DNA of 64,000 nucleotides from a virus (IMGVR_UViG_3300027896_000028), one strand, 5' to 3'. Counted from the stretch's first letter, positions 4,044 to 37,522 are shown. The notes: a model not told the origin generated them from the letters alone. Program-made: numbers and translations.

Positions 4044-4253
4044 TCAGGTTTCTTTCGCTAAAATGGCATAAACAGCACCAATGCATTTTTCTTTGGCCCA
4101 GTCAACCCACACTTGTTTATCAATGCAATCACTGGCTTCGATAGCAGATTGTGTAAACCTAATAAATTCACCGCTCATGTCGCAGATAACGAAGCCTTTA
4201 TCATCGATGTATAGCATGTATCTCGTCATAACATTAGGGATTTTCTTCGACAA
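4044..4253 (-). CDS. hypothetical protein
   Basis: 69-aa ORF. Confidence 0.4.
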   Translation of the reverse strand: MSKKIPNVMTRYMLYIDDKGFVICDMSGEFIRFTQSAIEASDCIDKQVWVDWAKEKCIGAVYAILAKET

Positions 4254-4731
4254 TCTTCATATACATCGTGTTCAAATCAGAATACACACGAGCCAGTAGA
4301 GATGGGTTAACCAATTCAGTCTGGATCAATACATCGTTCTTACGCTTGTACTCTGGATGGATACAGACATAAGTCTTGCGATAGGGAGCATACTGACACT
4401 TGACAAGCTGCTTACCATATTCCAGAAGGGTAATGGGTGCCAATGTCTCAGGAGCGAAATAGAATAGAGTAATCTCCGCCAAGTCGAGATGCTTAAACTC
4501 CCAAGCAATCTGCTCGCGTTCTGCTTTAGGGTCAAGAGTGGAATAGTTATCACGGCGTGGATTAAAGATGTTAAAGTGAGGTAACAAACGATTCGCAGCA
4601 TCATCTTGCCAATTGGAGGCACCAGTAATGGAGCCAGCTAGGAAGATGGTATGCTTCAAATCGAGACCAGAGTAGTGTTCAATGCTATTAGGAGCTTCGA
4701 GATATTTCATAAGTTTAAGATATGGCATCAA
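4234..4731 (-). CDS. nucleoside 2-deoxyribosyltransferase-like protein (putative)
   Basis: 165 aa. The motif IFLAGSITGASNWQDD resembles the Rossmann-type N-deoxyribosyltransferase N-terminus. This is an inference from motif recall only. Confidence 0.4.
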   Translation of the reverse strand: MMPYLKLMKYLEAPNSIEHYSGLDLKHTIFLAGSITGASNWQDDAANRLLPHFNIFNPRRDNYSTLDPKAEREQIAWEFKHLDLAEITLFYFAPETLAPITLLEYGKQLVKCQYAPYRKTYVCIHPEYKRKNDVLIQTELVNPSLLARVYSDLNTMYMKIVEENP

Positions 4732-5206
4732 TCGTTGTTCCGAAAGTGCGTACAGCCATTAACGTTTTCCCAAGGAGATTTAATCCTTGCCAATTCTTTT
4801 CATCGAGAATAAGATCATCATCCTCTGCAAGACCTACACCCCATATCTTATCTGTAGGTGAAGCTTCTACTAAAGTCCGTGAGCCTGTAGCTTTTAATAG
4901 TTCCCACAAGCCTAGATTCTGCCGAAACTTCGCAAGCACAGCAGTATGCATGGCGCGCTCACGTAATTTTTCCCATTTAGCATTGTTAAATCCTTTAACC
5001 AGTCTGCCTAGCTTCTTAGCTTCTGCAGGATGCTTAACACTTGCAATCTGCGTCATGATATCAGCATCGTTAAAATGGTAAGCCTTCAACCACATAAAGG
5101 CGTGCTCTGAAGTATAGAATGGTATATCGTCAATGTGTAACGGCGCAGGATAGAAGTTACTCATAAACCCACCGTAGAAATAGATATGTGTGTCAGTGGT
5201 CCTCAT
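4715..5206 (-). CDS. NADAR-domain protein (YbiA-like; NAD- and ADP-ribose-associated)
   Basis: 163 aa. IYFYGGFMSNFYPAPLHIDDIPFYTSEHAFMWLKAYHF matches the conserved YbiA/NADAR signature. Confidence 0.8.
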   Translation of the reverse strand: MRTTDTHIYFYGGFMSNFYPAPLHIDDIPFYTSEHAFMWLKAYHFNDADIMTQIASVKHPAEAKKLGRLVKGFNNAKWEKLRERAMHTAVLAKFRQNLGLWELLKATGSRTLVEASPTDKIWGVGLAEDDDLILDEKNWQGLNLLGKTLMAVRTFGTTIDAIS

Positions 5207-6099
5207 AGTTTGTCAAAGAATTTGTTCACTAACCCAAGGACGTGAATATTTGGGTGTTGCGTATCTACCAAATCATGGTAGTAACTATCAGTAGTCCATA
5301 TCTGATCAATACCGTTACATAACAATTTCTCAAGTGTAGTGGTTAGATTGGTATCTCCACCGAAGACTCCATGAGTAACGTAAAGAATAACCTTACCACA
5401 GTTCTTCTTCTTCAGCTCAGCAGCGAGACCAATGAATGTACCACCCATTTCGCAGATATCATCTACAATAACAACATTCCTACCTTTGAGATCATCGCAG
5501 TAAACAGCAATCTCTTTAATCTTTCCGTTTGTTAGATCGCGAAGCTTATCGGCCCGAACGAAATTGTCATGAGCCAACCAACCAGCCACTTCGGCTGTCT
5601 TCTTATTGCTACCAGCATCCGGACTGACGAGTACACTACCCATCAGAGTAGGAATGAAATCGGTATACTTGTTGAGTACATCGAGCTGAGAGATAATCTG
5701 AACCCGATCGATAACAGCTTCGCTAACCAAGCTATGAGGGTCGACAATGGTTACCTTGTTGAAGTTCAAGCTGTTGATGTAGTTAGCGAATACCTTCAAG
5801 CTAAAGGATTCACCTCTATCACAAACCCTATCCTGCCGAGCATAAGGCAGATAAGGCATGAACAGATTGATAGGGTTCTTGTCAAAGCGTTCAAGAGCGT
5901 CCTTCAGATTAGCCAGCTTGAACAAGTCATCGCTGTTCTGAATGCGAGCAACAATCACATTAGGCTGTTCAATAGATTGGTAAGCATAGTCAGCAGCATT
6001 AAGCTTGACAGACACTTCACCAGCAGGGAAGATGAATTCCTTGAAGTAAAGAGAACTTTTAATGCCAGTTGTGAGGTTAATTTTGTGGATGTTAAACAT
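5203..6099 (-). CDS. ribose-phosphate pyrophosphokinase (PRPP synthetase)-like protein; candidate Adps of an NAD+ reconstitution pathway
   Basis: 298 aa. The PRPP-binding loop NVVIVDDICEMGGTF is diagnostic of the Prs family. The long antisense ORF 5569..6120 is rejected. Confidence 0.8.
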   Translation of the reverse strand: MFNIHKINLTTGIKSSLYFKEFIFPAGEVSVKLNAADYAYQSIEQPNVIVARIQNSDDLFKLANLKDALERFDKNPINLFMPYLPYARQDRVCDRGESFSLKVFANYINSLNFNKVTIVDPHSLVSEAVIDRVQIISQLDVLNKYTDFIPTLMGSVLVSPDAGSNKKTAEVAGWLAHDNFVRADKLRDLTNGKIKEIAVYCDDLKGRNVVIVDDICEMGGTFIGLAAELKKKNCGKVILYVTHGVFGGDTNLTTTLEKLLCNGIDQIWTTDSYYHDLVDTQHPNIHVLGLVNKFFDKL

Positions 6100-6100
6100 A

Positions 6101-6283
6101 TTATTTGGGTGCGTGTATAAAGAGATAAAGGATACCTACAAATAGGCTGACAGTCATCGCGATCTGCAAAGGACTATCAGCGTCTTTGTTGTTACGGAGA
6201 AATCCAGCAATGCTGCACAGGCCACAGATGGACCAGATGATGGTAATTAGCATCAACCAATTGTTGTGAAGTATGATGTCCAT
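6101..6283 (-). CDS. small membrane protein
   Basis: Track ORF 6101..6379 trimmed to an internal Met. Two hydrophobic helices. Confidence 0.4.
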   Translation of the reverse strand: MDIILHNNWLMLITIIWSICGLCSIAGFLRNNKDADSPLQIAMTVSLFVGILYLFIHAPK

Positions 6284-6284
6284 A

Positions 6285-6467
6285 TTATCTTCCTTTGATG
6301 AAAGCAATGAGCAAAACCACCGCAAGAGCTGCTGCTCCAATGATAAAGAGCCAGTAGAAGAATGTAGGATACGTATCAATCAGCTGCTGGAAGCAGTACT
6401 GTTGATACGACATAACAACGACGGGTTGATTGTTCATATTAGTTCTCTTGAACGACGAATGTACCAC
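6285..6467 (-). CDS. small membrane protein
   Basis: 60 aa with a hydrophobic core (FFYWLFIIGAAALAVVLLIAFI). Confidence 0.4.
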   Translation of the reverse strand: MVHSSFKRTNMNNQPVVVMSYQQYCFQQLIDTYPTFFYWLFIIGAAALAVVLLIAFIKGR

Positions 6468-6696
6468 TGATGATTACAGCCTTGTCATTGTTGTCAATGA
6501 AGAAGCAGCTTCCACCACGATCTTCCACCTTGGACTTAGCTTTCCAAGTTTGGATAGCTGTACCGTTTGCGTTGTAGAGGGTGATGGTGCGATTCAAGCC
6601 GAGCCAGTCAGACTTCTCGTGCTTGAGTGCGTTGTTAATTTTACCACAACCGGTCAGAACAACCAGGAGAGGAGCGATGATGAGTAGTTTTTTCAT
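6439..6696 (-). CDS. putative lipoprotein
   Basis: 85 aa. N-terminal signal with lipobox LVVLTGC. Confidence 0.5.
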   Translation of the reverse strand: MKKLLIIAPLLVVLTGCGKINNALKHEKSDWLGLNRTITLYNANGTAIQTWKAKSKVEDRGGSCFFIDNNDKAVIISGTFVVQEN

Positions 6697-7289
6697 TTTG
6701 TTAGTTGATAGATAGATATTCCGAACTTGGTTTTGTCAGCGAACACTTTTGTAAATTCTCCAGTCTTCTCGAAAGCTTCGAGAGCGTTAGAGACACCGCT
6801 ACAGAAAACAGAATCATGGAAAATCATGTAACCATCTTTCGCAACGAGTGATTTGTAATTCTGGATGTCTCTCTTCACACCCTCTTCAGAGTGGTCTGCA
6901 TCAATATAAACTAAGTCGAAGAGCTGGTTATGAGACAATGCCCACGCTTGAGCTTCTTTTGACTGAGAGTCACCGATGTACTCTTCCACGTTCTTACCTT
7001 TGAGGTTATCCTTCCGATAGACGTGAGCAGAGTGTTGATTGTTGTCGATGATTTTGATCGTATCAATACCGAGAAAGTCAGAGAACACTCTTGCATTTCC
7101 ACCAGCAGCAGCACCAACCTCCAAGAGGTTCTTAAAGCTTTTATTAGAAGCCATTAAGAAAGCTACCACATTAGAAATCTCATCCAGGTTCTGCTGCAGA
7201 CGAATACCACCTACAAACTTACCACCAAACATTTCCAAGTTATCAGAACCCAGATCTGCGATTTTGTCTTTAATTTCTTGAATGTCCAT
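6693..7289 (-). CDS. class I SAM-dependent methyltransferase
   Basis: 198 aa. Motif I is LEVGAAAGG, and VYIDADH is typical of O-methyltransferase-like Rossmann enzymes. Confidence 0.7.
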   Translation of the reverse strand: MDIQEIKDKIADLGSDNLEMFGGKFVGGIRLQQNLDEISNVVAFLMASNKSFKNLLEVGAAAGGNARVFSDFLGIDTIKIIDNNQHSAHVYRKDNLKGKNVEEYIGDSQSKEAQAWALSHNQLFDLVYIDADHSEEGVKRDIQNYKSLVAKDGYMIFHDSVFCSGVSNALEAFEKTGEFTKVFADKTKFGISIYQLTK

Positions 7290-7327
7290 ACAAAGAGTGT
7301 AGATGATTTAGTTAATATGTGCAAGAG

Positions 7328-7549
7328 TTAAATTGAATATTCTGGTACAAATTCTTTGTTAAAGCAGTTCACTAGATGCTCCTCGTTAATGAAACCATAT
7401 CCATTGCGATCGAACTTGAATGTGCAGTCTTTATTCTCTGGTGTACCAGCACCACAATAGAAGTACTTGTTGACAGAGTGTAGATACATACACCTACCAA
7501 TCTTTAACTCTTCATTACACAATGGACATTTAGGATTCATAAGTCTCAC
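7328..7549 (-). CDS. cysteine-rich small protein (zinc-ribbon-like)
   Basis: 73 aa with CPLC...C...C...C spacing. Confidence 0.45.
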   Translation of the reverse strand: MRLMNPKCPLCNEELKIGRCMYLHSVNKYFYCGAGTPENKDCTFKFDRNGYGFINEEHLVNCFNKEFVPEYSI

Positions 7550-7763
7550 GCATTTGTACCCAGAACCGTAGGTTAGTAGCTACCGGTAGTCTTGCACTAT
7601 CAGCTACTGCTGTAGCAATATGAATACCGAGATGTGCATATGCATTATCATTCCATGAAGTTATTAGGTCATCGAGGTGTGCACCTGGACTTATAAACAC
7701 CCTGCGAGTGACATAGTCACGTTGCTTAAAAGGTTTACTAACTATTACATCTTCAGCTTCCAT
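7530..7763 (-). CDS. hypothetical protein
   Basis: Track ORF 7530..7832 trimmed to an internal Met to avoid overlap with the ligase gene. Confidence 0.35.
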   Translation of the reverse strand: MEAEDVIVSKPFKQRDYVTRRVFISPGAHLDDLITSWNDNAYAHLGIHIATAVADSARLPVATNLRFWVQMRETYES

Positions 7764-7764
7764 A

Positions 7765-8880
7765 TTAATGCTTAAAGCAATTGTCAATATCGATGCGAGC
7801 GAAGTTTGGAGTACCCAAACCAGTAAGACCATTGTAAAGGAACGTAACTGTCTTCCCTATCCAACCACCCACCTCAAAGAGAACCTTACGGTCCTCATAG
7901 CAACCTTTAAACGTTGCATCAAACTCTATACCCTCCCACAGCAATGTAGCTGTGACTGCAGAACCGTCCATCGTCTTGCCTTGATGGATAGCGAGGATCT
8001 TAGCTTCTGCGTCATCTTCGGGTTTAACCTTGAGTAGATCATATGAGCGACCGTGCTTGTAAGGAGCAGTGATAGACCGATACATAGCACCCTCGTACCC
8101 ATCATCTACATAGGATTGATACACTTTGTATGTCTCATCAACACTCTTCACCATCTCGTAGTCGACAACAACAATGTATTTGATATCCTGTAGAAAAGTC
8201 TTCAGAGCTTCACGACGCTGCAGGTTTCCGGTCTGCTCAGTAACGCCATTGAAACCGTAACCATCATAAACATAGAGCCGAACAAACTCTTCGCTCTCCT
8301 TTAAAACAGCTGGTGTGATCTTCTTCTCCTTCTTTTTGAGAATGCTCATCAACTTGTTGAGCTTATAACGGAACTCGTGATTGTAACCTTCACCATCAAT
8401 AACGAGATCAGGATATCTCTTAAAAAGAGGCTCCAAGGCTTTGATGATGTGTGGAATGGTAAGCCAGGTCTCACCCTTGCGAGTGAATGCACCATCCTTA
8501 GTAACAATGACACGACCACCGTTGTACTTGCGATCCAACATCGCCGGGAAAGTGATTGTATCAAGACGATCTTTGAGATGATAAGCGAGCATAGGCTCAA
8601 CGTACTGAAAGTTGTCAACATCATTGATAGAAAGGAAGTAACCAGTCTTGAGCTGTTTCTTGTATTTCGACTTGACCTCAGCTTCAGCTTGCTCTTCAGC
8701 AGTAGTAGCATTTGCCTTGCCGATGTTCTTCGGCTTAGCAATGACCCAATCTGATTCAACTAGATTAGGGCTACCCTTCACTCCAGCGACAGTACGAAAC
8801 TTATCACCATCACGCTGCTGATACCAGATGCGAATATTACCTGTTGAATCCTTACAATAGAGGGTGTCGTATGTTTTCAT
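7765..8880 (-). CDS. ATP-dependent DNA ligase (T7-like)
   Basis: 371 aa. Motif I is KYNGGR (compare T7 KYDGQR), motif IV is DGYEGAMYR and motif V is LLKVK. Confidence 0.8.
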   Translation of the reverse strand: MKTYDTLYCKDSTGNIRIWYQQRDGDKFRTVAGVKGSPNLVESDWVIAKPKNIGKANATTAEEQAEAEVKSKYKKQLKTGYFLSINDVDNFQYVEPMLAYHLKDRLDTITFPAMLDRKYNGGRVIVTKDGAFTRKGETWLTIPHIIKALEPLFKRYPDLVIDGEGYNHEFRYKLNKLMSILKKKEKKITPAVLKESEEFVRLYVYDGYGFNGVTEQTGNLQRREALKTFLQDIKYIVVVDYEMVKSVDETYKVYQSYVDDGYEGAMYRSITAPYKHGRSYDLLKVKPEDDAEAKILAIHQGKTMDGSAVTATLLWEGIEFDATFKGCYEDRKVLFEVGGWIGKTVTFLYNGLTGLGTPNFARIDIDNCFKH

Positions 8881-8908
8881 TATTAAAATTATAGCTTATT
8901 TTTCGAAA

Positions 8909-9142
8909 TTAGTCAAGAGTTTTTTCAAGTTGTTCACTGAGTAGATGTTGAACAAGTAGATGTTGAACAGTCTGGCTTACTTCCCATGCAACTGGAGATT
9001 CGATGCCAATACGTACCAGCATCATACCATCATCTACTACTGAGAAGGCATTGTACATATCATCATACATAGACATAGCCAACCTTTTCACTTCGTCCAT
9101 CTCAGCTGGTCTAGGTATTATATATGTTGTCATCTTTTCCAT
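8909..9142 (-). CDS. hypothetical protein
   Basis: 77-aa ORF. Confidence 0.4.
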   Translation of the reverse strand: MEKMTTYIIPRPAEMDEVKRLAMSMYDDMYNAFSVVDDGMMLVRIGIESPVAWEVSQTVQHLLVQHLLSEQLEKTLD

Positions 9143-9354
9143 AGGTTACATAAGACAGCTCTCAGTACAGATTGAACAGGTACTCTTGTATTACTGTACG
9201 TGGTTACGAATACTTGTTTATTGACCTCTTGGAAGATACCAATGTCAAAGTGGTTGAAGGTGTCTTCACTACACTGATGTTCTATTGACAGCATAACATC
9301 TGTACCAAGAAAGATATTTGTATCATCCATAATTAAAAAACCGGGCCCAGCCAT
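9130..9354 (-). CDS. hypothetical protein
   Basis: 74-aa ORF. Confidence 0.4.
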   Translation of the reverse strand: MAGPGFLIMDDTNIFLGTDVMLSIEHQCSEDTFNHFDIGIFQEVNKQVFVTTYSNTRVPVQSVLRAVLCNLWKR

Positions 9355-9376
9355 ATCATGTACTAGACCCGGTTGA
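9341..9376 (-). terminator. possible intrinsic terminator
   Basis: CCGGG...CCCGG hairpin with a long loop, followed on the minus strand by a T6 run, downstream of gene 9395..10255. Confidence 0.3.
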
Positions 9377-9394
9377 GTTGGCTACAAACTAAAC

Positions 9395-11628: not shown

Positions 11629-11997
11629 TTATTGCATTGCGTGAGCTGGCGTGGCTGTTGACAGTGTGCATGTAGGTGAAGTACCTACGTTCACTGTGTC
11701 GTTGTACGTCCCGCCACCAGGGCAGCCAGGGACTTTATTATTAGCATTCAGTTTGATATAAACTGAAAGGCTAGCAGATACTGAAGCAGTAGTGCCAGCA
11801 GCCTTGTTGTTCTCTATCGCATACTCCTGCGCTGCATTGTCAATCTGCTGAAGATTGTTAATGCATGCATTAGCTTGCGTCGTTGCACGAGCTCTCACGA
11901 AGTTGGGAATAGCAATAGCAGCAAGCAATCCTATAATTGCGACAACTATCATTATTTCAACAAGCGTGAAGGCGCTTTGTCTTTTGGTCGTTTTCAT
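11629..11997 (-). CDS. type IV pilin / pseudopilin-like protein (prepilin-type N-terminal cleavage/methylation domain)
   Basis: Leader MKTTKRQSA followed by FTLVEIMIVVAIIGLLAAIAIP, the class III signal / N-methyl-Phe hydrophobic helix. Strong SD (AAAGGAGAG) 6 nt upstream of the chosen ATG. GC-rich. Confidence 0.75.
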   Translation of the reverse strand: MKTTKRQSAFTLVEIMIVVAIIGLLAAIAIPNFVRARATTQANACINNLQQIDNAAQEYAIENNKAAGTTASVSASLSVYIKLNANNKVPGCPGGGTYNDTVNVGTSPTCTLSTATPAHAMQ

Positions 11998-12204
11998 GTT
12001 ACTCTCCTTTGAACATGGCGTGGAACAATGCAGCAAGCGGGTTATATGTAGTATGTATTTGTTCCAGTTTATTGCTCGCTGCTACCATATAAATAATTTA
12101 AGCTACTATTTTAAAAAGGTCAACTAAATAGTTTTACTTCTACCTCATCACTCTGGTTGATTCGTGTAAAGCTTTAATAAATATAAGATAGGAACCTAAA
12201 GAAG

Positions 12205-21645: not shown

Positions 21646-21879
21646 ATGGCAAACCTTAACCTTAGAGAACCAAACAATATAACTAGCAATTGGTATGTTG
21701 ATACAACATGCACACATTGCCATAAATGCACTAGAACTTGCTCTGCTGTGTTCTACGGCAACGAAAATGCTACATGGGTATTTGCCGGCCCGCATACTCC
21801 TGAGGATTTGGCTCTGTGTGAGAAAGCTATGGCCGAATGTCCAGTCGGTGCAATAGGTAATGATTGGGTAGAGCCTTGA
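21646..21879 (+). CDS. 4Fe-4S ferredoxin-like protein
   Basis: 77 aa with CTHCHKCTRTC (CxxCxxCxxxC) and a distal ECP cysteine. Confidence 0.55.
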   Translation: MANLNLREPNNITSNWYVDTTCTHCHKCTRTCSAVFYGNENATWVFAGPHTPEDLALCEKAMAECPVGAIGNDWVEP

Positions 21880-21909
21880 TTCGTATTAAGCAGGTACTAC
21901 AATACTACT

Positions 21910-22455
21910 ATGAAAGCAATTGTAGCAATGGATTTAAACCGAACCATTGGTAATAACGGTAAACTCCCCTGGCCAAAAATTAAAGAAGATTTCGCGTTCT
22001 TCAAGAAGATGACTATAGGTGACAATCTTATCATGGGTCGCAAGACTTTTGACTCTGTAGGTGAGTTACCTGGACGCTTCACTTGGATCTTAACTAATGA
22101 TCAATCTAAGATGGCTAAGAAGTGCCTTAATATGGCTGGTGAGAGTTATGCCTACAATAATAACAGCGCTTATGTTGAGCGAGCTGATATTGATAAATTT
22201 ATAGCGACTGAAGGAAAAGATCCTCGATACACTAGCGATTTATGGGTTTGTGGTGGTGCCCAAATCTACAAAGATCTGATTCCCCTCTGCACAGATGTTT
22301 ATGTTACTCTAGTATTGAACGAATACGAAGGTGATACATTTCTACCGGAGTTTGAACATCTCTTCATTGAGCAAACTATTATTAAAGAACATAAAGACTT
22401 CTGGATCATTAGATACCACACACCTACTGCGATACCGGGAACACAATTGGTATAG
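21910..22455 (+). CDS. dihydrofolate reductase
   Basis: 181 aa. AIVAMDLNRTIGNNGKLPW and WVCGGAQIY are the DHFR signature motifs. Confidence 0.85.
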   Translation: MKAIVAMDLNRTIGNNGKLPWPKIKEDFAFFKKMTIGDNLIMGRKTFDSVGELPGRFTWILTNDQSKMAKKCLNMAGESYAYNNNSAYVERADIDKFIATEGKDPRYTSDLWVCGGAQIYKDLIPLCTDVYVTLVLNEYEGDTFLPEFEHLFIEQTIIKEHKDFWIIRYHTPTAIPGTQLV

Positions 22456-23694: not shown

Positions 23695-23922
23695 TTACCA
23701 GTTAATCGTTGTAGTTTCACTATCCATGTCTACATGGACCTGGTAACCTAACCTCAAGAGCTCCCTCTTGACTGTAGCTTTAATGCGGTAAGCTAGTCTA
23801 CATTCGCGTAAATTAGTATTAATACTGCGAAGGATATTCTCTTCTACGTTCTCAAGCTGACCTTCGAGGCTACCCTCAACCATGTCAGCTGCTTCCTGTG
23901 CTGTAGGTAATTTTTTAAACAT
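23695..23922 (-). CDS. hypothetical protein
   Basis: Track ORF 23695..24021 trimmed to an internal Met to reduce overlap with the next gene. Confidence 0.35.
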   Translation of the reverse strand: MFKKLPTAQEAADMVEGSLEGQLENVEENILRSINTNLRECRLAYRIKATVKRELLRLGYQVHVDMDSETTTINW

Positions 23923-24250
23923 ATACGATTTTGATTTTATTTTGTTCTGCGAATTCAATCTCGGCTTTAACACCGACAGATACATCCCAGCCTGGGAGCT
24001 GATAAACGAATAAACCATCACACAAGCTCAAAAAATGTAGATCGTGCTCTGACCAGAACTCCCATGTGTGAGGTAATTTAGGCTCAGCAGCGAGAGCAAT
24101 TGGACGACCGTGTGATATCGGAGAGTATACGCGATACCCTTCTAACATCAGAGCAGCTGCCTTCTTGTTGATGAGGTTAAACCTGCTCTCCATCTCCTTA
24201 GGGTCTGGATGTGAGTATGGTGCTGCCAGATAGATGAATAGCTTTTTCAT
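23915..24250 (-). CDS. nucleoside 2-deoxyribosyltransferase-like / DUF4406-like protein (putative)
   Basis: 111 aa. MKKLFIYLAAPYSHPD...CDGLFVYQLPGWDVSVGVKAEIEFA matches the small Rossmann NDT-like fold pattern (inference). Confidence 0.4.
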   Translation of the reverse strand: MKKLFIYLAAPYSHPDPKEMESRFNLINKKAAALMLEGYRVYSPISHGRPIALAAEPKLPHTWEFWSEHDLHFLSLCDGLFVYQLPGWDVSVGVKAEIEFAEQNKIKIVYV

Positions 24251-24779: not shown

Positions 24780-25580
24780 CTATTTTAAGAGGTTGAAGTA
24801 TTCTCGCCAATCACATTTAATGAGCTTGCATTGTCTAGGGTCAGACAGATATAAGAAGTCTAAAATCTTTTCATCACTACCAATGTAGCCATTTGCAATG
24901 CAGGCTTCTACAATCATGTTAAATGTAGTAACCATTGAGTCTATCATTTCAATAGGTACAATGAATGCTGTACCTTGAATAAAGCGCATCTGCGACAAAG
25001 CATGATCTCTCGGTACTTGTATGCTAATATCTGAATGATGAGAGAAGAATGTAATTCGTTCTTTATCGATCTTAGCTTCGTTAGGCCATACCACACCCTT
25101 GTAGTTTTTTATATCTTCTCTCAAGCCACCAGCGTCAACCCAGAATAGGAACTGCTGACCTGGGAAAGCTGCAGCTTCTGCTGCAATCTCCAGAAAGCGT
25201 ACCTTATTAAACATCACTACATTGTATAGGGGTTTAGACATCTCTGGTACATGGTGAAAGGACACTTGCTTCTTGAATGCTTCAGAAGACATCAGCTCTT
25301 CAAGTTCATCGTTAAACTGAACATAGGCATCTAGCTCTTTAAGAGGTGTAATTAGTAGATGCGTCTTACAACCTGTAGGGTCAACCTCTCTACGAGATCT
25401 TATGATCTCCTCTTTAAATTTCTCTTCAGTAAAGATGACCATATTGCAGTCGATAGCTAACGTATTCTTCATCCAGTGGAGATACGTGTTGTAAGACATA
25501 GTGTGATGTTGCCATTTATCCCTCTCAATATCATAGAGAGCTGTAACTAGAGTAGTGTGTTTATTCATATCCATTGCCAA
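24780..25580 (-). CDS. hypothetical protein (possible nucleotide-sugar transferase-like)
   Basis: 266 aa. An LFWVDAGG motif lies in a glycosylation gene cluster. The family assignment is uncertain. Confidence 0.45.
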   Translation of the reverse strand: MAMDMNKHTTLVTALYDIERDKWQHHTMSYNTYLHWMKNTLAIDCNMVIFTEEKFKEEIIRSRREVDPTGCKTHLLITPLKELDAYVQFNDELEELMSSEAFKKQVSFHHVPEMSKPLYNVVMFNKVRFLEIAAEAAAFPGQQFLFWVDAGGLREDIKNYKGVVWPNEAKIDKERITFFSHHSDISIQVPRDHALSQMRFIQGTAFIVPIEMIDSMVTTFNMIVEACIANGYIGSDEKILDFLYLSDPRQCKLIKCDWREYFNLLK

Positions 25581-26323
25581 TTTACAATTTGATTTTTGTG
25601 AAGTATATTTACCTTAGACACATCAAAATGTCTAGAGGTGTTATCAGGGCTGTATAGAGAGTCTAATTTAAAGCCTACATGGTTAAGCATAGTGGGTACA
25701 AAACCTTCACCGTAACCAAAATAACCAGCATCATTGAAATCTAACAAAGCTTTAAACGCTTCATTTGAATATCGAGTGATAGCAAAGAATGAACCGAATA
25801 TGTCTTTGACATCAGCAGGCATAGTATCTGTCGGGCCAGGATATCTACGAAACCAATCGGTACCTGAGTGAGTATTATTGTCAATCAACGGTACTAGAGG
25901 TTGTTCAGTGATACCAGCATTCTTGAATATGAAGTAGCTTAGGAAATCTGAATCATACTTTACATCTTTAAAAAATGCATCCCAGTCATTGCAGAGTATA
26001 TCATCATCAAAGAACCAATAGTAGTCGAAATTTGGATTAGCTTTATAGAAGTTAAGCATCCTTAGATAAGCATAGAACCATATGATGTTACGATTACCAT
26101 AAGCATTCCAGTAATGCTGCTTGCTTACCTCGTGTGGAAATTTCAGATTCTTTCGTACATCTGCTTCTGTGTAGATAAATGAGTTACCGTTGATAGGAGA
26201 AACTGGATTACTCTGACTATCGATAATAGCGTAGGTATTAGGTTTTTCAAGAAATGCCTTCCAGTGTGGGATATAGCTATTAATTGAATGGTTAGCAAAG
26301 CATGCACAATAACTGTTAATCAT
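25565..26323 (-). CDS. putative glycosyltransferase (DxD motif)
   Basis: 252 aa. YWFFDDDILCNDWD is a DXD-type motif. Confidence 0.5.
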   Translation of the reverse strand: MINSYCACFANHSINSYIPHWKAFLEKPNTYAIIDSQSNPVSPINGNSFIYTEADVRKNLKFPHEVSKQHYWNAYGNRNIIWFYAYLRMLNFYKANPNFDYYWFFDDDILCNDWDAFFKDVKYDSDFLSYFIFKNAGITEQPLVPLIDNNTHSGTDWFRRYPGPTDTMPADVKDIFGSFFAITRYSNEAFKALLDFNDAGYFGYGEGFVPTMLNHVGFKLDSLYSPDNTSRHFDVSKVNILHKNQIVNWQWI

Positions 26324-27122
26324 ACGAAGTTCTTAGAATTTTATACCATGTAGGTATCCGGTTAAATTGATGTACAATAGCATAAGGTGACCTCTGTTTA
26401 TTTACTATGCGACCATTGTATAGTTCAGGTACACAGTACTTCTCTTTTATGATGTTAAAGAATCCCCACACATTGAAGAATTGTGTTGGTCCAGCTACTG
26501 CACAATGCATAGCCCAGCTGTCATTTAAATTATAAATCTTCAGCTTATCTACCTGCTTCTTAGCTACCATGACAATGAGAGCTGCCTGGTCTTGTATATC
26601 ATGCTTATTAGTGCTACCTTCACACATAGCGTACATCCGCTTAAGCAATGAACTTAGAGGTGCGCGATTACCAGCAATGACACCAGAGTTGATGACTTCT
26701 TGATCTGAACATACAGCTCTATCACCTGGAAATAGCTTGCTTATGTTATCGGCATTCCATGGTTCCTGGTTAACCGTAACACCTTCACCACTTACAAAAA
26801 TATCATATGTACTGAAATCGAGCAAGAGCGGATTATCTTGAAATACGACATCAAAGACATCTGTGTACAGGATATGTTCATCTGTAATTGTGTCTAGATA
26901 ATCTGCAGCTACCTTCAACCGTGTATGATTAATAGATTGCTCGTGTGGTAGATTAACAGATATAACTTTCAACGGTAGATCGGCTACAGACTGCAAATCT
27001 CGTTCAGTCGCGTTAATAGCAAGTAAAACTACTGCATCTGGGCTGAAACGCTTGAAGCTCCTACTCCAGAGGCTTATTTTCGCTTTGTTATTGAACAGTT
27101 GATTACAAACACCTAAAAGCAT
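26316..27122 (-). CDS. putative glycosyltransferase
   Basis: 268 aa. ILYTDVFDVVFQDNP is a DxD-like motif. Co-oriented with neighbouring GT genes. Confidence 0.45.
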   Translation of the reverse strand: MLLGVCNQLFNNKAKISLWSRSFKRFSPDAVVLLAINATERDLQSVADLPLKVISVNLPHEQSINHTRLKVAADYLDTITDEHILYTDVFDVVFQDNPLLLDFSTYDIFVSGEGVTVNQEPWNADNISKLFPGDRAVCSDQEVINSGVIAGNRAPLSSLLKRMYAMCEGSTNKHDIQDQAALIVMVAKKQVDKLKIYNLNDSWAMHCAVAGPTQFFNVWGFFNIIKEKYCVPELYNGRIVNKQRSPYAIVHQFNRIPTWYKILRTSYD

Positions 27123-27123
27123 A

Positions 27124-28362
27124 TTAAAGTTTACCTATAATTTGGTTACACCATCCCTTGCTCATACTATGAGGCCAAACAATCCAGCTAGCAGGTTTTT
27201 CAACTACATCAAACTCTCTCCAAATTTTAACCCATTGATCATCACCAGCGAGACAAGCCTTCACCTCTTCTAGATTAGCATCCTTACGATATAGATCGCG
27301 ACCGTCAGCAGCCTTGAAAGCAACACACCAGAAATCATAATCAGTCTCAGTAAACTGTGGTCTATGAGCATCTATACAATGCTTGAAACGACGTGTGAGC
27401 GATGCTTCCCAATTTTCAACTGGTGGATTAGGAGCTATCTTATTCTCTAATGTATATTGCTGAACTGAGCGATTCTTGAAGCTGATACCAGCATACAGCT
27501 CGTAATCGCGAAGTGTACGCTTAGTACCGAATCCGTAGATACCAAAATCAATATCCTGTACTTCGTTATCCATACCGAAAAGCTTACGATTTCTTAAATG
27601 AGATTCCTTATTCTGTTCACCCCATTTAGGTGCATCATCCCAATGCTTTGTACGACCCTTTCTAGTATACTCGTGCCAGCATATAACCTTGTGCGGACAG
27701 AACAAATCATATCCATGTGTAAATGACCTCACAGCAAGGTTAATCTCTTCACCATGAAAGTAATAATGTGGGTCATAAATCACCTCTTTATTCCATTGAC
27801 CTAGAGTGAAGATAAAATGAGCTGAGAGAAAACGAGCTGGTAACGGTGAATTATAACTCTGCCAATTCGGTATAGTAGCTGGAAGAAAGAATACAGCTCC
27901 TTCAGGAATGAATCTATCAAAATTCATCAACCACGGAACCTCTGTTCTACCAGCTGGATAAGTCTCCGGGTTAAATGATGGTATATAAGATGTCAGCAAA
28001 GGTTTCTCATGTCCTTTAGCTCTCAACTCCTCGAGCATGTTGATACAAGTTTCATCCCAGTTCGGTGTAAACCTGTGATGTGAATCCAAACATAACGAAT
28101 ACTTCTCATTTGTATACTGCTGTTGAATGAGATTACGTGCCCAGCAACAGCCACCTGTTTTGTCATGGGGTATATCAAGTATCTTTACATTCGGCAGATC
28201 TTTAATCTCGTCAATTTTCTCATCCGGTGAATGCTGCCATGCAATGCAGATTGTAATATTCTCTGGATTCTTAGCGTTTGAAAGTAGGTGCTGAATTGTC
28301 GACACCAACAGAGGGTCTCGGTAAGCAGCGATCTGCACAAAAATAGTATTTGGTTGCGCCAT
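27124..28362 (-). CDS. glycosyltransferase (GT-A fold)
   Basis: 412 aa. N-terminal IFVQIAAYRDP...ICIAWQHSPDE...CLDSHHRF follows a GT-A Rossmann pattern. Confidence 0.6.
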   Translation of the reverse strand: MAQPNTIFVQIAAYRDPLLVSTIQHLLSNAKNPENITICIAWQHSPDEKIDEIKDLPNVKILDIPHDKTGGCCWARNLIQQQYTNEKYSLCLDSHHRFTPNWDETCINMLEELRAKGHEKPLLTSYIPSFNPETYPAGRTEVPWLMNFDRFIPEGAVFFLPATIPNWQSYNSPLPARFLSAHFIFTLGQWNKEVIYDPHYYFHGEEINLAVRSFTHGYDLFCPHKVICWHEYTRKGRTKHWDDAPKWGEQNKESHLRNRKLFGMDNEVQDIDFGIYGFGTKRTLRDYELYAGISFKNRSVQQYTLENKIAPNPPVENWEASLTRRFKHCIDAHRPQFTETDYDFWCVAFKAADGRDLYRKDANLEEVKACLAGDDQWVKIWREFDVVEKPASWIVWPHSMSKGWCNQIIGKL

Positions 28363-31727: not shown

Positions 31728-31732
31728 ATTTT

Positions 31733-32059: not shown

Positions 32060-32062
32060 ACG

Positions 32063-32371: not shown

Positions 32372-32454
32372 TGACTCTAGTATTTGGCGAATAGCATCTG
32401 TTGCTTCTTGCTTCTTGCTTCTGTTCGTCAGTTCTGTAGTCTGCGTAGTAGTCT

Positions 32455-32781
32455 TTAATCTTCATACGACTTGGTAATGTTATAGATTGACTGATCTATT
32501 GTATAAGCACCTGTCAGAGTTACAAAATTAGTGCTTTGAAAAACCGCTTTCATACCTGCATTCTTAATTTCCTGTTTACACAATTCTTTAAAAATTTCTG
32601 CTGCGGTTATGTTATTAGGTATAGACAACAACTCTGATACTGCTTTGCTACCCTCTGGTGTTGTCATATGACTCCAAACTATCGGGGTATTTGGAACCAT
32701 AGCAATCTCTAAACAAGGATTAGGCACACTACCGGGTGTGTTCAATGTCCATTCTTCATCTGTTATTGGGTCTTCGTTCAT
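32455..32781 (-). CDS. hypothetical protein (paralog family, member 3, divergent)
   Basis: 108 aa. TDEEWTLNTPG...IFKELCKQ. Confidence 0.45.
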   Translation of the reverse strand: MNEDPITDEEWTLNTPGSVPNPCLEIAMVPNTPIVWSHMTTPEGSKAVSELLSIPNNITAAEIFKELCKQEIKNAGMKAVFQSTNFVTLTGAYTIDQSIYNITKSYED

Positions 32782-33257
32782 TCAGAGTCGATTTCATCTA
32801 ATGTGGAGTCAAAATCAACCGAGCTGTTAAGCCTCTTAATAATCTCGTCCTTGCAGCTATCTATCAAACCGACATCAGTATCAGTCTGAACTAGATGAGA
32901 TGTCAGATTAGACATATCGTTGTCATCATCCACAATTACAAAGCAAGTCACATCCGGGTTCTCGTCGAGCCAGTGTTGTATCTCACCACCTCTATCGAGG
33001 TGCGGCAGACTTGCTGTCTTACCAATGACTACACGACGAGTAGCTGGGCTGAGTTTTGAGAACAGATAATTAACTGATGCTGGGTGATGTCTCCATGTAG
33101 ATGAAAGAACGATGTCGCAGCCTGTTTCTGCAGCAATTTGATCTAACATTGCGCATTTATCTTTTTCTACCCCTACCAAACCATCAAATGATTCGGTCGT
33201 AAACCTGTTGTTGAGAACTCCATCAACGTCTAAGAAGAGTACTTTCCTTGATTGCAT
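32778..33257 (-). CDS. HAD-superfamily phosphatase
   Basis: 159 aa. Motif I is FLDVDGVLN, and the acidic motif is FVIVDDDND. Confidence 0.7.
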   Translation of the reverse strand: MQSRKVLFLDVDGVLNNRFTTESFDGLVGVEKDKCAMLDQIAAETGCDIVLSSTWRHHPASVNYLFSKLSPATRRVVIGKTASLPHLDRGGEIQHWLDENPDVTCFVIVDDDNDMSNLTSHLVQTDTDVGLIDSCKDEIIKRLNSSVDFDSTLDEIDSE

Positions 33258-33323
33258 AATTAGTTTTTTTGTAGTGTGATTTCCATTGTTGTAATTATAT
33301 TTGACAAATTTAAAAAGTCAATG

Positions 33324-34799
33324 TTATTTTTTAATTTGGTCTTTCCAGAATATCGATAGAGCGAGTTGAGTACAGCGACTCTGGAATTGAGCTGCACTTT
33401 CACCTCTGCCTGCTTCGATAGTTTTCTCAACCAGTTCAGGGTAATCAGAGAGTATATATTTCGCAACTTTTTCGCGCTCTGTTTGCTCCATCTCGTGCAG
33501 CTCGATAATACGGTCTACACGCCCTGGTCGAGTTGATTTGACTTCGATATCAGCCTTATCTGGTATACCAAGTGCAGGGTCAAGACTTGATATGTCGTTA
33601 GTTGTAATAACCAAGAACACACCATCTCCATTATTGACACCTGAAATAGTATTCAAGAGACAATCGAATGTGAGTGAGTCTATCAACTCCTTAGCCGTAA
33701 TATTTGCTCTACCGCTGAACACGTTATCAATATCTTCAATCAGAGCTATAGCAGGTGCATTTTGTTGAACCTCCTGCCATGCTTCGGTAAAGGAGTTATT
33801 GTCTAACCCGCTTAAGTCGAGAACATATACAGGTAAATCCAAATCCATCGCAATAGAACGAACAAGTGTACTCTTACCAGTTCCAGGTTTACCGTGTAGG
33901 AGCCAGCCCATGCGCCAGGTAATACCTTTTTCTTTGAACCACTTTTCGTGTTTAAGCCACAACCGAATTTCTTTAACGGCTTCCATAACATAGTCAGGGA
34001 AGAAGAAAACATTAAAAGCTGTGTTCTTACCTTTCTTGGTTCCAATATCGCCAATCTCCCAGTTAAGTAGGCGAACTACGTTTGTGCGTATATTTGTTTC
34101 ATCTGAAGATACACCAGTGTGACCACCTCTACTCGACACTTCATCGCTACCATTCTTTCCACCTGAGCCCTTCATAGAGCGACCAATACGCGTAATGCTA
34201 AAGCGATTATTCTTTTCTACAAGGTTTTCAAAGCCTGTTACACACTTCAACCCGCTATTAGAGCTTATGCGGTGTAGGCTGTTATAATAGTCGATCGACT
34301 CTAATACAAGTTTATTGATATCAAATAGGCCTCTGATTGTGCTGACGTTAATAATAAAGTCGGAGCTATATTCACCAAAGCCGCGAGAATCCTTCTGACC
34401 ATTAAAACCGTATACAATTGGTCTCTTATTAAGCCATACTAGGATGCTTTCAGACGAGAAGCTTTCAAAACCAACAACCTCAACGCGTTGAACAGGGTTA
34501 ACAAACAGCTTACTACCACCAAAGACTCGAGGTCCAAATATGCTACGCTTTGCTTTAGCGTTTAAGTAAGCGCTTATTGCTTTAGCTGAATCATCCTTAA
34601 GAGTAACCTTGACAAACAATATGCTGCTCAAATTGCGCACAAAACCGGTAATATGGCCCCATGCAGTAACAACTATCGCGATTACAGCAGCGATACCCGC
34701 ATATCCACCAGCACTAGTTAAGTATGCAGGTATATTTGAACTTGCTGCATGAACAACAGGGACTGCGTTAGAAGCTTGAATAATGAAGTTAGTTGTCAT
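33324..34799 (-). CDS. membrane-anchored AAA+ ATPase (BCS1-like)
   Basis: 491 aa. N-terminal TM segment, Walker A LLHGKPGTGKST and Walker B ALIEDID (the IEDID form typical of BCS1). Confidence 0.65.
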   Translation of the reverse strand: MTTNFIIQASNAVPVVHAASSNIPAYLTSAGGYAGIAAVIAIVVTAWGHITGFVRNLSSILFVKVTLKDDSAKAISAYLNAKAKRSIFGPRVFGGSKLFVNPVQRVEVVGFESFSSESILVWLNKRPIVYGFNGQKDSRGFGEYSSDFIINVSTIRGLFDINKLVLESIDYYNSLHRISSNSGLKCVTGFENLVEKNNRFSITRIGRSMKGSGGKNGSDEVSSRGGHTGVSSDETNIRTNVVRLLNWEIGDIGTKKGKNTAFNVFFFPDYVMEAVKEIRLWLKHEKWFKEKGITWRMGWLLHGKPGTGKSTLVRSIAMDLDLPVYVLDLSGLDNNSFTEAWQEVQQNAPAIALIEDIDNVFSGRANITAKELIDSLTFDCLLNTISGVNNGDGVFLVITTNDISSLDPALGIPDKADIEVKSTRPGRVDRIIELHEMEQTEREKVAKYILSDYPELVEKTIEAGRGESAAQFQSRCTQLALSIFWKDQIKK

Positions 34800-34800
34800 A

Positions 34801-35103
34801 TTATTTTACCTTTTCAAAAACGTGAGCTACAAATGCACCTTCCTTAAGAGTATAAGAGCCAATAAATAAGACCCCTGTGTCAGAGCAAGGTGTATCTACT
34901 CCTACTGTAATTATCTCTTTTGGTATATATGGATTGTTAATATTCTCTGCAACATACAAGTTAACTGCTGGTCTAATACCATACGCACCAGATACTGGTT
35001 TTGATTTATCAGTATGAATGCTTAAGAACATGGCTCCCTCTCTCACATGAATATTCTGTGAGTTGCTGACGCTCAGTTCTATAGCTCTAATTTGCATGCT
35101 CAT
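34801..35103 (-). CDS. hypothetical protein
   Basis: 100 aa. Confidence 0.4.
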   Translation of the reverse strand: MSMQIRAIELSVSNSQNIHVREGAMFLSIHTDKSKPVSGAYGIRPAVNLYVAENINNPYIPKEIITVGVDTPCSDTGVLFIGSYTLKEGAFVAHVFEKVK

Positions 35104-35725
35104 AATTTGTCGTGAATGTCGTTGTTTGATTTATTTCCAGACACTTATAATACACACCATCAATAGTAATTTCAAGATTTTTATGGTGGTGTCCAAAGAA
35201 AACTTGTTTCGGTTTGCGTCTCTCAATCATTCGCTGGAGAGCTAACCTAGTACGAGATTTTGCAGTAACCCACGGCCACGCACCCTGTACAATATTCTGA
35301 GGGCCATCGTGTGAAAGAAGAGTATCAGCAGAGCTGTGTTCCCATTGATTAATAGCTTCTTCGAGTTGTTGGTATGTCAACTCTTCATCATCCCACCAGT
35401 CGATACCAATTGTGCGAGAATCCTTGTCATGACTATCTGCACCAGAAACAAAGAAGAAGCCTTTATACTCACCGAAATCACCTAGACAGTTTGGAAGGGT
35501 ATGGCACTCTTTGCGATTGTCGTGATTACCTGGGAAGAACTTAAAGGTAGGTGGTAACTTCTTAAACTTGTATGTATCCGGTACACCATCAACAATAAAG
35601 CCAACACCTAAGTCTCCTATCTGGATAACCTCAGTTTTAGTAGGTACCCTCTTCTGAGCTTTTTGGTGCACCTTATGGCACCTATCTAGGTAACCATGTA
35701 CATCGCCTAAAATTGTAAATGTCAT
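35087..35725 (-). CDS. metallophosphoesterase (calcineurin-like / lambda PPase-like)
   Basis: 212 aa with GDVHG, GDLGVG and GNHDN motifs. Confidence 0.75.
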   Translation of the reverse strand: MTFTILGDVHGYLDRCHKVHQKAQKRVPTKTEVIQIGDLGVGFIVDGVPDTYKFKKLPPTFKFFPGNHDNRKECHTLPNCLGDFGEYKGFFFVSGADSHDKDSRTIGIDWWDDEELTYQQLEEAINQWEHSSADTLLSHDGPQNIVQGAWPWVTAKSRTRLALQRMIERRKPKQVFFGHHHKNLEITIDGVYYKCLEINQTTTFTTNYEHAN

Positions 35726-35922
35726 ACTATTGGTGATCTTAGATCTAAGAGATCAAAGTCGTTCTTGTTGACAGTTAGTTTTCCGTGGTCTTTAAACTCT
35801 ACAATGTAGTAGTAGTCATCGCATACTCTAGTATCTCGAGTAACAGCAATTAAGGTACCTTCTTCATGCTTCTCTATTCTGTTACCTTCAACGGTAACAG
35901 CTTTGCGTGCGCACACCCTCAT
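35722..35922 (-). CDS. hypothetical protein
   Basis: 66 aa. Confidence 0.35.
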   Translation of the reverse strand: MRVCARKAVTVEGNRIEKHEEGTLIAVTRDTRVCDDYYYIVEFKDHGKLTVNKNDFDLLDLRSPIV

Positions 35923-36022
35923 TCTATTGTAGATTCTTCAGCTTTGATAGCTTCCTGTTTTTGTTTCTCGAGATAGATGTTGTATTCCGCTTCTTGTTCA
36001 GTTTGTTCTTCAGTCGTCATAT

Positions 36023-36205
36023 TTACCTTTTTAATAGGATGTTGATCCAAGTGATTAATGTAATTAAAAATGGTGCTGTAATCAAGGCGAAAATCACGCC
36101 ACCTACTGGCCCGGAATCACAATGCCAGAAATGGAACCATTTAGTCTTCTTGACTATTACAGTTGGTTTGGTAGGTACTATCGGTTTTGATGTTTGTTGT
36201 ATCAT
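36023..36205 (-). CDS. small membrane protein
   Basis: 60 aa, hydrophobic. Confidence 0.3.
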   Translation of the reverse strand: MIQQTSKPIVPTKPTVIVKKTKWFHFWHCDSGPVGGVIFALITAPFLITLITWINILLKR

Positions 36206-36420
36206 GCTAGTTCGTTAATAGTTGGTAAATGGTTTCCTTGGACATTACGTGTATATACAAAAGTCGACGGTACTAGGTCCCATGGATTATATCCAATATA
36301 AGCTGTATGCGAAGTTGTATCCGGTTTAGGGAATTCAATCTTCTGCGGTCCAGGTGGTTGAAACAGTGTGTTCAAACCAACTGGTCTCAGGATATTAGGG
36401 TTAATAGCTCCTACAGTCAT
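36202..36420 (-). CDS. hypothetical protein
   Basis: 72 aa. Confidence 0.35.
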   Translation of the reverse strand: MTVGAINPNILRPVGLNTLFQPPGPQKIEFPKPDTTSHTAYIGYNPWDLVPSTFVYTRNVQGNHLPTINELA

Positions 36421-36872
36421 ACAGGTAGTTTACAGATAAACAAAGTACCTTCCCACTCTTCGAAGATAACTTTGAGCATCGTTTCAATAATTCTCCAGTC
36501 TCCTCCACCGAGGCCACACCCGATAAAGTAGGGTACTGCAGCACTTCTCAAACCTACAGTTTCAAGATGACTGCGAATACCTGTCATCCCGGTAAAGAAG
36601 GCTTCATAGTCGGTATGACGTTTATCACTTCCATACCGATATTGACTGTATAGGTTATAGATGTACTTAGCATCATAAGCTTTAACACAGCTATAGTGGC
36701 CCATCTTAGCTTTGTCTCCACAAGTGGTATGATTATCTGCCTCAGCAGCTTCAGGGTACCTATCACGAATTAACCTAGCAATGCCGCCACCCATCTTCCC
36801 AAAGCAATTGCATTGGTGAATGATAGCATCACTCTCCATTTTAAAGATGTCCATTTCAACATTTGTAATCAT
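36417..36872 (-). CDS. Macro-domain protein (ADP-ribose binding/processing)
   Basis: 151 aa. IIHQCNCFGKMGGGIARLI matches the macro-domain core (NAAN...GGGV). Confidence 0.7.
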   Translation of the reverse strand: MITNVEMDIFKMESDAIIHQCNCFGKMGGGIARLIRDRYPEAAEADNHTTCGDKAKMGHYSCVKAYDAKYIYNLYSQYRYGSDKRHTDYEAFFTGMTGIRSHLETVGLRSAAVPYFIGCGLGGGDWRIIETMLKVIFEEWEGTLFICKLPV

Positions 36873-37522
36873 TTCTTTTCCTCTAGTCTTCCAGCTGTAT
36901 TGTCAATTTCCTGTCTACGTTTAGCTGCTTTAGCTCTGCATTCAGCGCAGCGAATAGTAACCCAGCCCAGACTAGCTGTTACATCCTTTGTGGAACCGCA
37001 AGTCTCACAAATCTTATAAGACATAGATTCCGCGAAGTCGATATACGCCATGGTGGTCATATCCCCACCCCTAACATAGAAGCACAACCCGCCGAACTTT
37101 TCTTTAACCTGCAAAGCAACCACTTGAGATCTGGGGATCTTGGATTCCTTATGGTGTTCATGCAAGCTGAAATGGCTTTGAATCCACTGATACAATCTCC
37201 ACTCTGTACTCTTAAAATATCCCGCAGGTCTAGGGCCCTTGTTGTCGTCCAACAATATGTTGTGTGCTAACGGATACACGATATGATTCCACACCAAGGC
37301 ATTCCACAATCTCTTCAGCTTACGAATGACTATATTTTCAGGGACCCAATCCTTCTGGTCGCAATGCCATTGAATCTTGCGACAGGTTAGATCAAGAAGA
37401 TCATACCATCCATCTCCGCATTCAAACCCCCAGTACATACAACTTTCAGTCATTGGCTTATCTCTGTCAGCAAAGATCTTAGGGTACTTGTCGTATAACT
37501 TCTTTGTATTTTCTTCGTTCAT
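36869..37522 (-). CDS. hypothetical protein with C-terminal zinc ribbon
   Basis: 217 aa. CETCGS...CAEC at the C-terminus. Translationally coupled to the macro gene. Confidence 0.5.
   Translation of the reverse strand: MNEENTKKLYDKYPKIFADRDKPMTESCMYWGFECGDGWYDLLDLTCRKIQWHCDQKDWVPENIVIRKLKRLWNALVWNHIVYPLAHNILLDDNKGPRPAGYFKSTEWRLYQWIQSHFSLHEHHKESKIPRSQVVALQVKEKFGGLCFYVRGGDMTTMAYIDFAESMSYKICETCGSTKDVTASLGWVTIRCAECRAKAAKRRQEIDNTAGRLEEKK

Follow-up and report, generated by a model that had tools for sequence, protein, structure and literature searches.

A candidate NARP1 variant with NADAR and NDT-like genes in an uncultured phage, and a large zinc-finger protein family linked to metallophosphoesterases

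The stretch of viral DNA analysed here (IMGVR_UViG_3300027896_000028, 64,000 nucleotides; its full length is called the window) carries genes for the metabolism of NAD+ and ADP-ribose (ADPR), together with a gene for a 217-amino acid (aa) zinc-finger protein that overlaps a Macro domain gene. Our reading is that the window comes from an uncultured phage of ∼76 kb encoding a variant of the NAD+-reconstitution pathway NARP1 with extra feeder and clean-up enzymes, and that, rather than being a dedicated partner of the Macro protein, the 217-aa protein is linked to metallophosphoesterases (MPE). We give this joint reading about an even chance of being right. The toolkit itself is real but represents a variation on systems described in recent publications. 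The gene content (DNA ligase, dihydrofolate reductase, tail-fibre-like repeat proteins and RNA ligase), together with gene density and strand runs, is that of a tailed-phage genome. Megablast of 12 kb of the window against the GenBank phages (50,697 records) gave no match, which suggests that the phage is without a close relative in culture; metagenomic contigs of up to 75.9 kb encode a protein identical to the product of the 217-aa open reading frame (ORF).

The NARP1 genes lie on the minus strand at 2143–6099. The NAMPT-like protein (2143–3759; PF04095 and PF18127) is taken as Namat, the nicotinamide ADP-ribose transferase of NARP1, because a phmmer search of the PDB places structures 9W5X and 9W5W (3e-142) far ahead of canonical NAMPT (∼1e-52); these two entries are the solved phage Namat structures (PMC12774641). 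A homologue of phosphoribosyl pyrophosphate (PRPP) synthetase, the Adps candidate (5203–6099; PF13793, PF00156 and PF14572; TIGR01251, 130 bits), is encoded 1.4 kb from Namat on the same strand, which is the arrangement by which NARP1 is detected in published work (a PRPP-synthetase-like gene near Namat). Searching the PDB by sequence brought up no Adps structure. The operon runs Adps-NADAR-NDT-x-x-Namat, all on one strand and with overlapping or near-abutting ends. The start of the NADAR gene overlaps the Adps stop by 4 nt, and the NDT-like gene (4234–4731; PF15891, 66.5 bits for a cut-off of 30) likely has its true start at the ATG at 4710, 4 nt past the NADAR stop. Two small tightly packed ORFs of 83 and about 60–69 aa, taken from the ORF list (3791–4253), fill the space from Namat to the NDT-like gene, and their Pfam matches are all sub-threshold. 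The sole PDB relative of the NDT-like protein is the uncharacterised 4MCJ; a homologue with 43% identity closes the NAD-salvage cluster of Sinorhizobium phage Phosso. What the sequence-only reading of this DNA had called an NAD+ salvage pair thus appears to be the NARP1 pathway. The window Namat, at 538 aa, is longer than the solved Namat (491 aa) and aligns with it as two stretches, which implies a probable insertion of ∼45 residues near residue 250. A 594-aa plus-strand ORF at 2110–3894 is an antisense shadow of Namat.

The NADAR protein (4715–5206, minus strand) matches PF08719 with 152 bits, and its closest structures are 8BAU (4e-18) and YbiA (4e-12). Residues E34 and K41, in the motif SEHAFMWLK, are invariant across 46 homologues. 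In T4 AdfN, the corresponding pair E36 and K43 matters, and all three phage NADARs assayed reverse DarT1 toxicity and guanine ADP-ribosylation (PMC11825919), in agreement with the earlier remark that NADAR undoes the guanine modification made by DarT. The window protein shares with AdfN, an orphan phage NADAR mimicking the antitoxin of DarTG1, a stand-alone NADAR of ∼160 aa with the catalytic Glu and Lys seven residues apart. However, AdfN genes are not described within NAD+-reconstitution operons, whereas the window NADAR gene overlaps Adps.

The same embedding is seen again elsewhere. Of 80 viral contigs retrieved by means of an alignment of related NADARs, 12 carry a NAMPT-family gene within 5 kb of NADAR and five have both a PRPS-like and a NAMPT-like gene; one locus has the same gene set in the order Adps-NDT-NADAR-Namat (L255). 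It is not universal, since the cultured phages ESa1 and Vibrio 2.275.O have no NARP1 near their NADAR genes. Compared with the NARP1 and NARP1-AP systems of Osterman et al. (bioRxiv 10.1101/2024.02.11.579819 and 10.64898/2026.01.28.702374), the window has in common that one operon encodes both a solved-type Namat and an Adps candidate resembling PRPS. It differs in what lies between Adps and Namat, where NADAR, the NDT-like gene and two small ORFs are present instead of Macro. The passages of the survey by Iyer, Burroughs and Aravind covered here describe NADAR beside phage NAD+ salvage genes, propose soluble ADP-ribosylated substrates and report that Macro and NADAR co-occur in DNA viruses above chance (PMC9503650). 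The window likewise has NADAR by NAD+ salvage genes, both Macro and NADAR, and HAD and calcineurin-like enzymes; those same passages make no mention of the 217-aa family or of its link to metallophosphoesterases.

The Macro protein (36417–36872, minus strand) matches PF01661 with 28 bits (cut-off 22) and phrog_335, annotated 'phosphatase', at 9e-42; its family is found in 2,604 GenBank phage records, often under that same annotation. It is probably an Adpp-like ADPR-1''-phosphate phosphatase that would act in trans from a distant site, because it is 39% identical (4e-32) to a Macro protein encoded within the operon for NARP1 in Vibrio phage 166E36-1. There the gene lies between a 'ribose-phosphate pyrophosphokinase' and a 'nicotinamide phosphoribosyl transferase', as in the NARP1-AP operons. 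The Macro protein of the latter, Adpp, was shown to produce ADPR for NARP1 from the ADPR-1''-phosphate that aRES defence generates (10.64898/2026.01.28.702374). By contrast, the window Macro gene belongs to a separate transcription unit 30 kb off. The same Vibrio phage operon contains a second 'phosphatase' gene just upstream of the Adps-like gene (L249:1371–1811).

In the scheme we propose, host defences would split NAD+ into nicotinamide and either ADPR, ADPR-1''-phosphate or ADP-ribosylated DNA. The Macro protein would strip the 1''-phosphate, like Adpp, and NADAR would cut N-glycosidic ADP-ribose adducts, either the guanine adduct of DarT1, as AdfN does, or a soluble N-linked derivative. 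Adps and Namat would then rebuild NAD+ from ADPR and nicotinamide; in NARP1 as defined, Adps forms ADPR-PP from ADPR and ATP, and this product is the preferred substrate of Namat. The idea of a multi-part NAD+ and ADP-ribose counter-defence set, put forward in the sequence-only reading, is supported by the Namat matches to 9W5X and 9W5W and by the catalytic Glu/Lys pair of NADAR.

The second part of our reading concerns the 217-aa protein (36869–37522, minus strand), a member of a very large uncharacterised phage family. It consists of an N-terminal module (KYPKIF and WGFECGDGW), a QVKEKFGGLxFY hairpin and a C-terminal Cys4 zinc finger (C172xxC175...C192xxC195). The motifs common to the family are KYPKIF, WGFECGDGW, QVKEKFGGLRFY and the finger, in which C172, C175 and C192 are invariant in 87 sequences and position 195 is Cys or His. 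Members are 100–250 aa long, mostly 130–220, with a variable insert between these elements. An exhaustive profile search gave 18,777 representatives (clusters at 50% identity) at E ≤ 1e-3, 11,311 of them at E ≤ 1e-10, and a word-indexed search gave 1,287 relatives of the 217-aa protein. The family is encoded at more than 500 IMG/VR loci and at 190 loci of species-representative genomes from many phyla; the GenBank phages contain just two partial matches, both in uncultured huge phages.

The 217-aa protein has no significant match among Pfam, PHROG or NCBIfam families, where the zinc-finger region alone gives sub-threshold hits, nor in the PDB by sequence or by fold. AlphaFold2 models are confident (pLDDT 92.5 for the long form and 93.5 for the short form), and the fold search found no counterpart among solved structures. 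The BFVD search returned only uncharacterised viral proteins or partial zinc-finger matches, and no resemblance to any ADP-ribose-binding fold was seen. The likeness to treble-clef and zinc-ribbon Cys4 fingers (Lar, the TnpB zinc finger, RING/U-box) spans only ∼40–50 residues, whereas the N-terminal module and the QVKEKFGGLRFY hairpin are without a known relative. No literature was found on the family motifs.

Several identities were considered for this protein and set aside. The matches to an HNH PHROG, to Lar and to a BFVD 'thymidine kinase' span the zinc-finger region alone, and the His or Asn of a His-Me nuclease is not conserved in the family. C-terminal fusions, to PTH2, to an HAD-like domain and, by probable read-through, to a pterin-binding fragment, are too sporadic and heterogeneous to serve as a functional clue. 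A 236-aa protein on a Paraburkholderia panacisoli contig (L238:2466–3176) has a similar N-terminal motif (YPIFF...FGIQCGFGWYGII) with another C-terminus, so the N-terminal module may be a separable domain. In a large group of freshwater phage contigs (L003–L166, IMG/VR), a T4 RNase H-like 5'-3' exonuclease gene is followed by a family member and then by a WYL_2 (PF10902) gene, which places the family member in the early/replication region of these phages.

In the window, the TGA stop of the 217-aa gene overlaps the Macro ATG (ATGA at 36869–36872), and the ORF has the CxxC...CxxC motif. A 77%-identical homologue has the same 4-nt overlap with the Macro that comes after it, which is itself 93% identical. 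The pair is also intact in a relative sharing 80% nucleotide identity, although the flanking 72-aa gene switches side there; this ORF follows Macro in the window (36202–36420, minus strand) but precedes the 217-aa gene in the related contig L084. The gene immediately upstream of the one for the 217-aa protein is a 105-aa Cys/Pro-rich ORF with two CxxC pairs (37526–37843, minus strand), which has no family match in Pfam or PHROG and is absent upstream of the 77%-identical relative. It is the first gene after a hairpin resembling an intrinsic terminator (37894–37925, minus strand; ACGCGTA, a 10-nt loop, TACGCGT and TTTTTT), which was read from the sequence and is missed by a scan with an 8-nt loop limit. 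This hairpin would close the upstream gene and mark the start of the transcription unit that holds the 217-aa and Macro genes.

The pairing with Macro is nevertheless confined to the window's own lineage. We analysed the neighbours of the family, by simple ORF calling and local jackhmmer or BLAST clustering, at 162 other viral loci, corresponding to 77 lineages at 70% identity, and at 80 genome loci. The viral set represents ∼160 of the more than 500 loci, those most similar to the queries, and dereplication at 70% leaves deep shared synteny. A Macro gene is found within the flank in 3 of the 77 viral lineages, never directly adjacent outside the lineage of the window, and near a family member in a single one of the 80 genome loci. 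A 63%-identical relative lacks Macro: no 150-aa gene comes after it, yet downstream minus-strand genes of matching sizes are present. Pfam matches among 120 neighbours at positions +1 and +2 were Metallophos (5), WYL_2 (3) and NADAR (1), and the family was present at only 2–3 of the 80 NADAR-centred loci.

Metallophosphoesterases are the supported partner. Such a gene lies within the flank of the family at 34 of the 162 viral loci, that is in 18/77 lineages, whereas NADAR-centred control viral loci have one in 1/80 (Fisher p = 1e-5); it is also near the family at 15/80 genome loci, against the same 1/80 (Fisher p = 3e-4). The partner is calcineurin-like and about 255–290 aa long, with a Pfam Metallophos match of 2.5e-13 and a weak resemblance to CpdA/TIGR03729. 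The association holds in the reciprocal direction: the family is encoded on the same strand at 40 of 80 viral loci fetched by an MPE alignment, compared with 3 of 80 control loci, and in 39 of these 40 it is within 1.6 kb of the MPE gene, mostly directly upstream. Among bacteria (Beta-, Gamma- and Alphaproteobacteria, Desulfobacterota and others), the two genes often stand in the opposite order but remain adjacent, and the clusters are joined by HAD_SAK-like genes (11–12/80 loci) and DEDD-exonuclease genes (11/80). The link between the family and the MPE is thus strong, reciprocal and independent of gene order.

The window itself has a calcineurin-like metallophosphoesterase (35087–35725, minus strand; PF00149, 37.6 bits; DVH and GNHD motifs present) located 1.1 kb downstream of the 217-aa gene. 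The interval between the two includes Macro, which immediately follows the 217-aa gene. That this enzyme belongs to the ∼284-aa partner subfamily was rejected, as it shows no BLAST similarity to it and is of a different subtype. Its own relatives abut family members in L146/L155 (2.7e-23, 3 nt apart), and another occurs in L085 (2e-8). Five independent units have Macro or NADAR near the family, and four of them also have an MPE (one-sided p = 0.012). On a 202-kb contig (L085:5001–10202, JGI 3300035390), a 131-aa family member overlaps the start of NADAR, after which come an 80-aa ORF, an NMNAT-like CTP_transf_like gene, a metallophosphoesterase of the window type and an NAD-dependent DNA ligase; the pattern matches that of the window with NADAR replacing Macro.

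Concerning function, we suggest with low confidence that the 217-aa protein would most likely be a zinc-finger accessory subunit, for substrate binding or targeting, that would act with a phosphoesterase on a nucleotide or nucleic-acid phosphoester. In a more elaborate form, the family and the MPE would be the two genes of a phage module that is widespread but so far undescribed. Its role would be to break down or recycle some nucleotide phosphoester, whether derived from NAD+ or not; an ADPR derivative and a cyclic nucleotide that signals in immunity are examples. Interchangeable ADP-ribose hydrolases would be added to it (Macro in the window, L024, L144 and L154; NADAR in L085), and the zinc-finger protein would be a substrate-recognition or regulatory subunit with a fold unseen in solved structures. 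We consider this fuller version quite unlikely to hold as a whole.

Several observations weigh against the joint reading. On the side of the family, the window MPE has no BLAST similarity to the ∼284-aa subfamily behind most of the association, four ORFs separate it from the 217-aa gene, and the MPE association could partly be synteny inherited within related freshwater phages. On the side of NARP1, the Adps candidate is distinguished from an ordinary PRPP synthetase by its context alone, and a curated NCBIfam model names the NADAR protein a riboflavin-intermediate N-glycosidase (151 bits for a cut-off of 74). Moreover, ∼30 kb separate the Macro gene from the operon (2143–6099), whereas NARP1-AP is defined by a Macro gene within two genes. 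The best solved relatives of the Macro protein are macrodomains of the DarG/TARG1 type, which align over the full length at 2e-8 to 6e-8, while Poa1p (6LFU), the relative of known function closest to Adpp, aligns with residues 2–51 only (5e-6).

These last observations bear on the first alternative, in which NADAR and Macro are free-standing antitoxin mimics against DarTG, NADAR acting on the guanine adduct of DarT1 and Macro on the thymine adduct of DarT2, with no metabolic link to NARP1. The structure that matches Macro at 2e-8 is 5M3I, a DarG macrodomain. The NCBIfam antitoxin_DarG model (NF048014) also recognizes Macro, at 1.3e-13, but the score of 50.9 bits does not reach its cut-off of 250 and the macro part alone aligns. 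The activity of all the assayed phage NADARs against DarT1 fits this alternative, and phage DarG-like mimics are described in two publications (PMC11481870 and PMC13309987). However, the NADAR gene overlaps the Adps stop inside a NARP1 operon and this embedding is recurrent, and the closest Macro homologue with an informative context, that of Vibrio phage 166E36-1, is itself in a NARP1 operon. In a by-eye alignment with TARG1, Macro appears to have SQY instead of TKK at the catalytic lysine position, which we also weighed against an antitoxin role. We therefore regard the mimic explanation as doubtful, although a serious contender.

A second alternative is an RNA-end repair module, in which the 217-aa protein, Macro, the two metallophosphoesterases, an HAD phosphatase and an RNA ligase would heal and reseal tRNA or other RNA cut by host anticodon nucleases; Macro would process ADPR-1''-phosphate or Appr>p by-products of 2'-phosphate removal, and the zinc finger would bind RNA. 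The HAD phosphatase (32778–33257, minus strand; PF18143 HAD_SAK_2, 101 bits) is of the 'Swiss Army Knife' type, a family defined from RNA-repair proteins, and its relatives adjoin homologues of the 217-aa protein at 11–12 of the 80 bacterial-genome loci, where DEDD-exonuclease genes also occur. Between the metallophosphoesterase and HAD genes are those of an AAA ATPase (33324–34799, minus strand) and a DUF7352 protein (34801–35103, minus strand). RNA-end repair accounts for the HAD and metallophosphoesterase genes no less well than ADP-ribose handling does. Family members elsewhere adjoin RlaP/NTP_transf_2, an RF-1-domain protein and an Rv2179c-like exoribonuclease, and Macro, HAD and calcineurin-like enzymes are reported in phage RNA-repair neighbourhoods in the viral survey (PMC9503650). 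The rare fusions of the family to PTH2 and to an HAD-like domain point in the same direction, but they are heterogeneous. The RNA ligase (45624–46694, minus strand; PF21189 and PF09414) is 8 kb off with tail-fibre-like genes between, Tpt1/KptA, polynucleotide kinase and RtcB were all undetected among the ORFs scanned, and the Macro homologue of a cultured phage sits in a NARP1 operon. On balance, RNA-end repair is an unlikely explanation of this region.

Finally, the sequence-only reading proposed for the 217-aa protein a role with Macro as a new component that processes or targets ADP-ribose, which is very improbable: the overlapping codons, the persistence of the pair while its flanking gene changes side, the homologue overlapping NADAR in L085 and the MPE in four of five Macro or NADAR units speak for it, but the scarcity of Macro and NADAR near the family, the 63%-identical relative without Macro and the lack of resemblance to any ADP-ribose-binding fold speak against it.

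For the remaining members of the toolkit listed in the sequence-only reading, most assignments were recovered. NADAR, Macro and the HAD phosphatase are at the positions given above, and both NDT-like proteins exist, the second being encoded at 23915–24250 (minus strand; DUF1937, 66 bits; DUF4406, 29.5 bits) with the hypothetical protein 1T1J as its sole PDB relative. The description of the set as dispersed is right for Macro, ∼30 kb away, and wrong for NADAR and the NDT-like gene at 4234–4731, which belong to one packed operon running from the Adps-like gene to Namat. Of the two metallophosphoesterases, that at 35087–35725 lies in the range 4234–37522 assigned to the toolkit, and the second, a YfcE-like protein (42089–42556, minus strand; PF12850, 32.3 bits), lies beyond it. 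The announced HIT protein was not recovered: no HIT domain was matched by a Pfam scan of almost every ORF of 100 aa or more in 4234–37522 (two plus-strand ORFs overlapping scanned minus-strand genes excepted), and no HxHxHxx motif occurs in any ORF of this range.

Other genes of the window were noted in passing. At 44010–46694, a PTPS/QueD-like gene and the RNA ligase, which has a PHA02142 OB domain, are near the YfcE-like metallophosphoesterase, and the genes at 42089–46694 could form an RNA-repair or queuosine-related block. A 135-aa protein at 11629–12036 has a type IV pilin N-terminal methylation motif (PF07963, 3.5e-8), and at 21646–22455 on the plus strand a 77-aa 4Fe-4S ferredoxin is encoded immediately upstream of dihydrofolate reductase. 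The regions 24780–28362 and 38302–41784 contain an HtrL_YibB-like protein and a GlcNAc-transferase in one block, and a sulfotransferase between two fibre-like proteins with YadA-head repeats. These may modify virion or host glycans.

Taken together, the NAD+ and ADP-ribose part of the window holds little that is new beyond recent papers except for one recurrent form of NARP1, in which NADAR and an NDT-like enzyme take the place that the Adpp phosphatase has in other phages. This layout points to further candidate entry routes into NAD+ reconstitution. For the 217-aa protein, the result is negative for the original idea of a Macro partner, and the pair formed by the family and the MPE is a modest, directly testable lead: an unannotated family of more than 11,000 clusters that is reciprocally tied to a metallophosphoesterase in phages and in prophage-like elements of several phyla.

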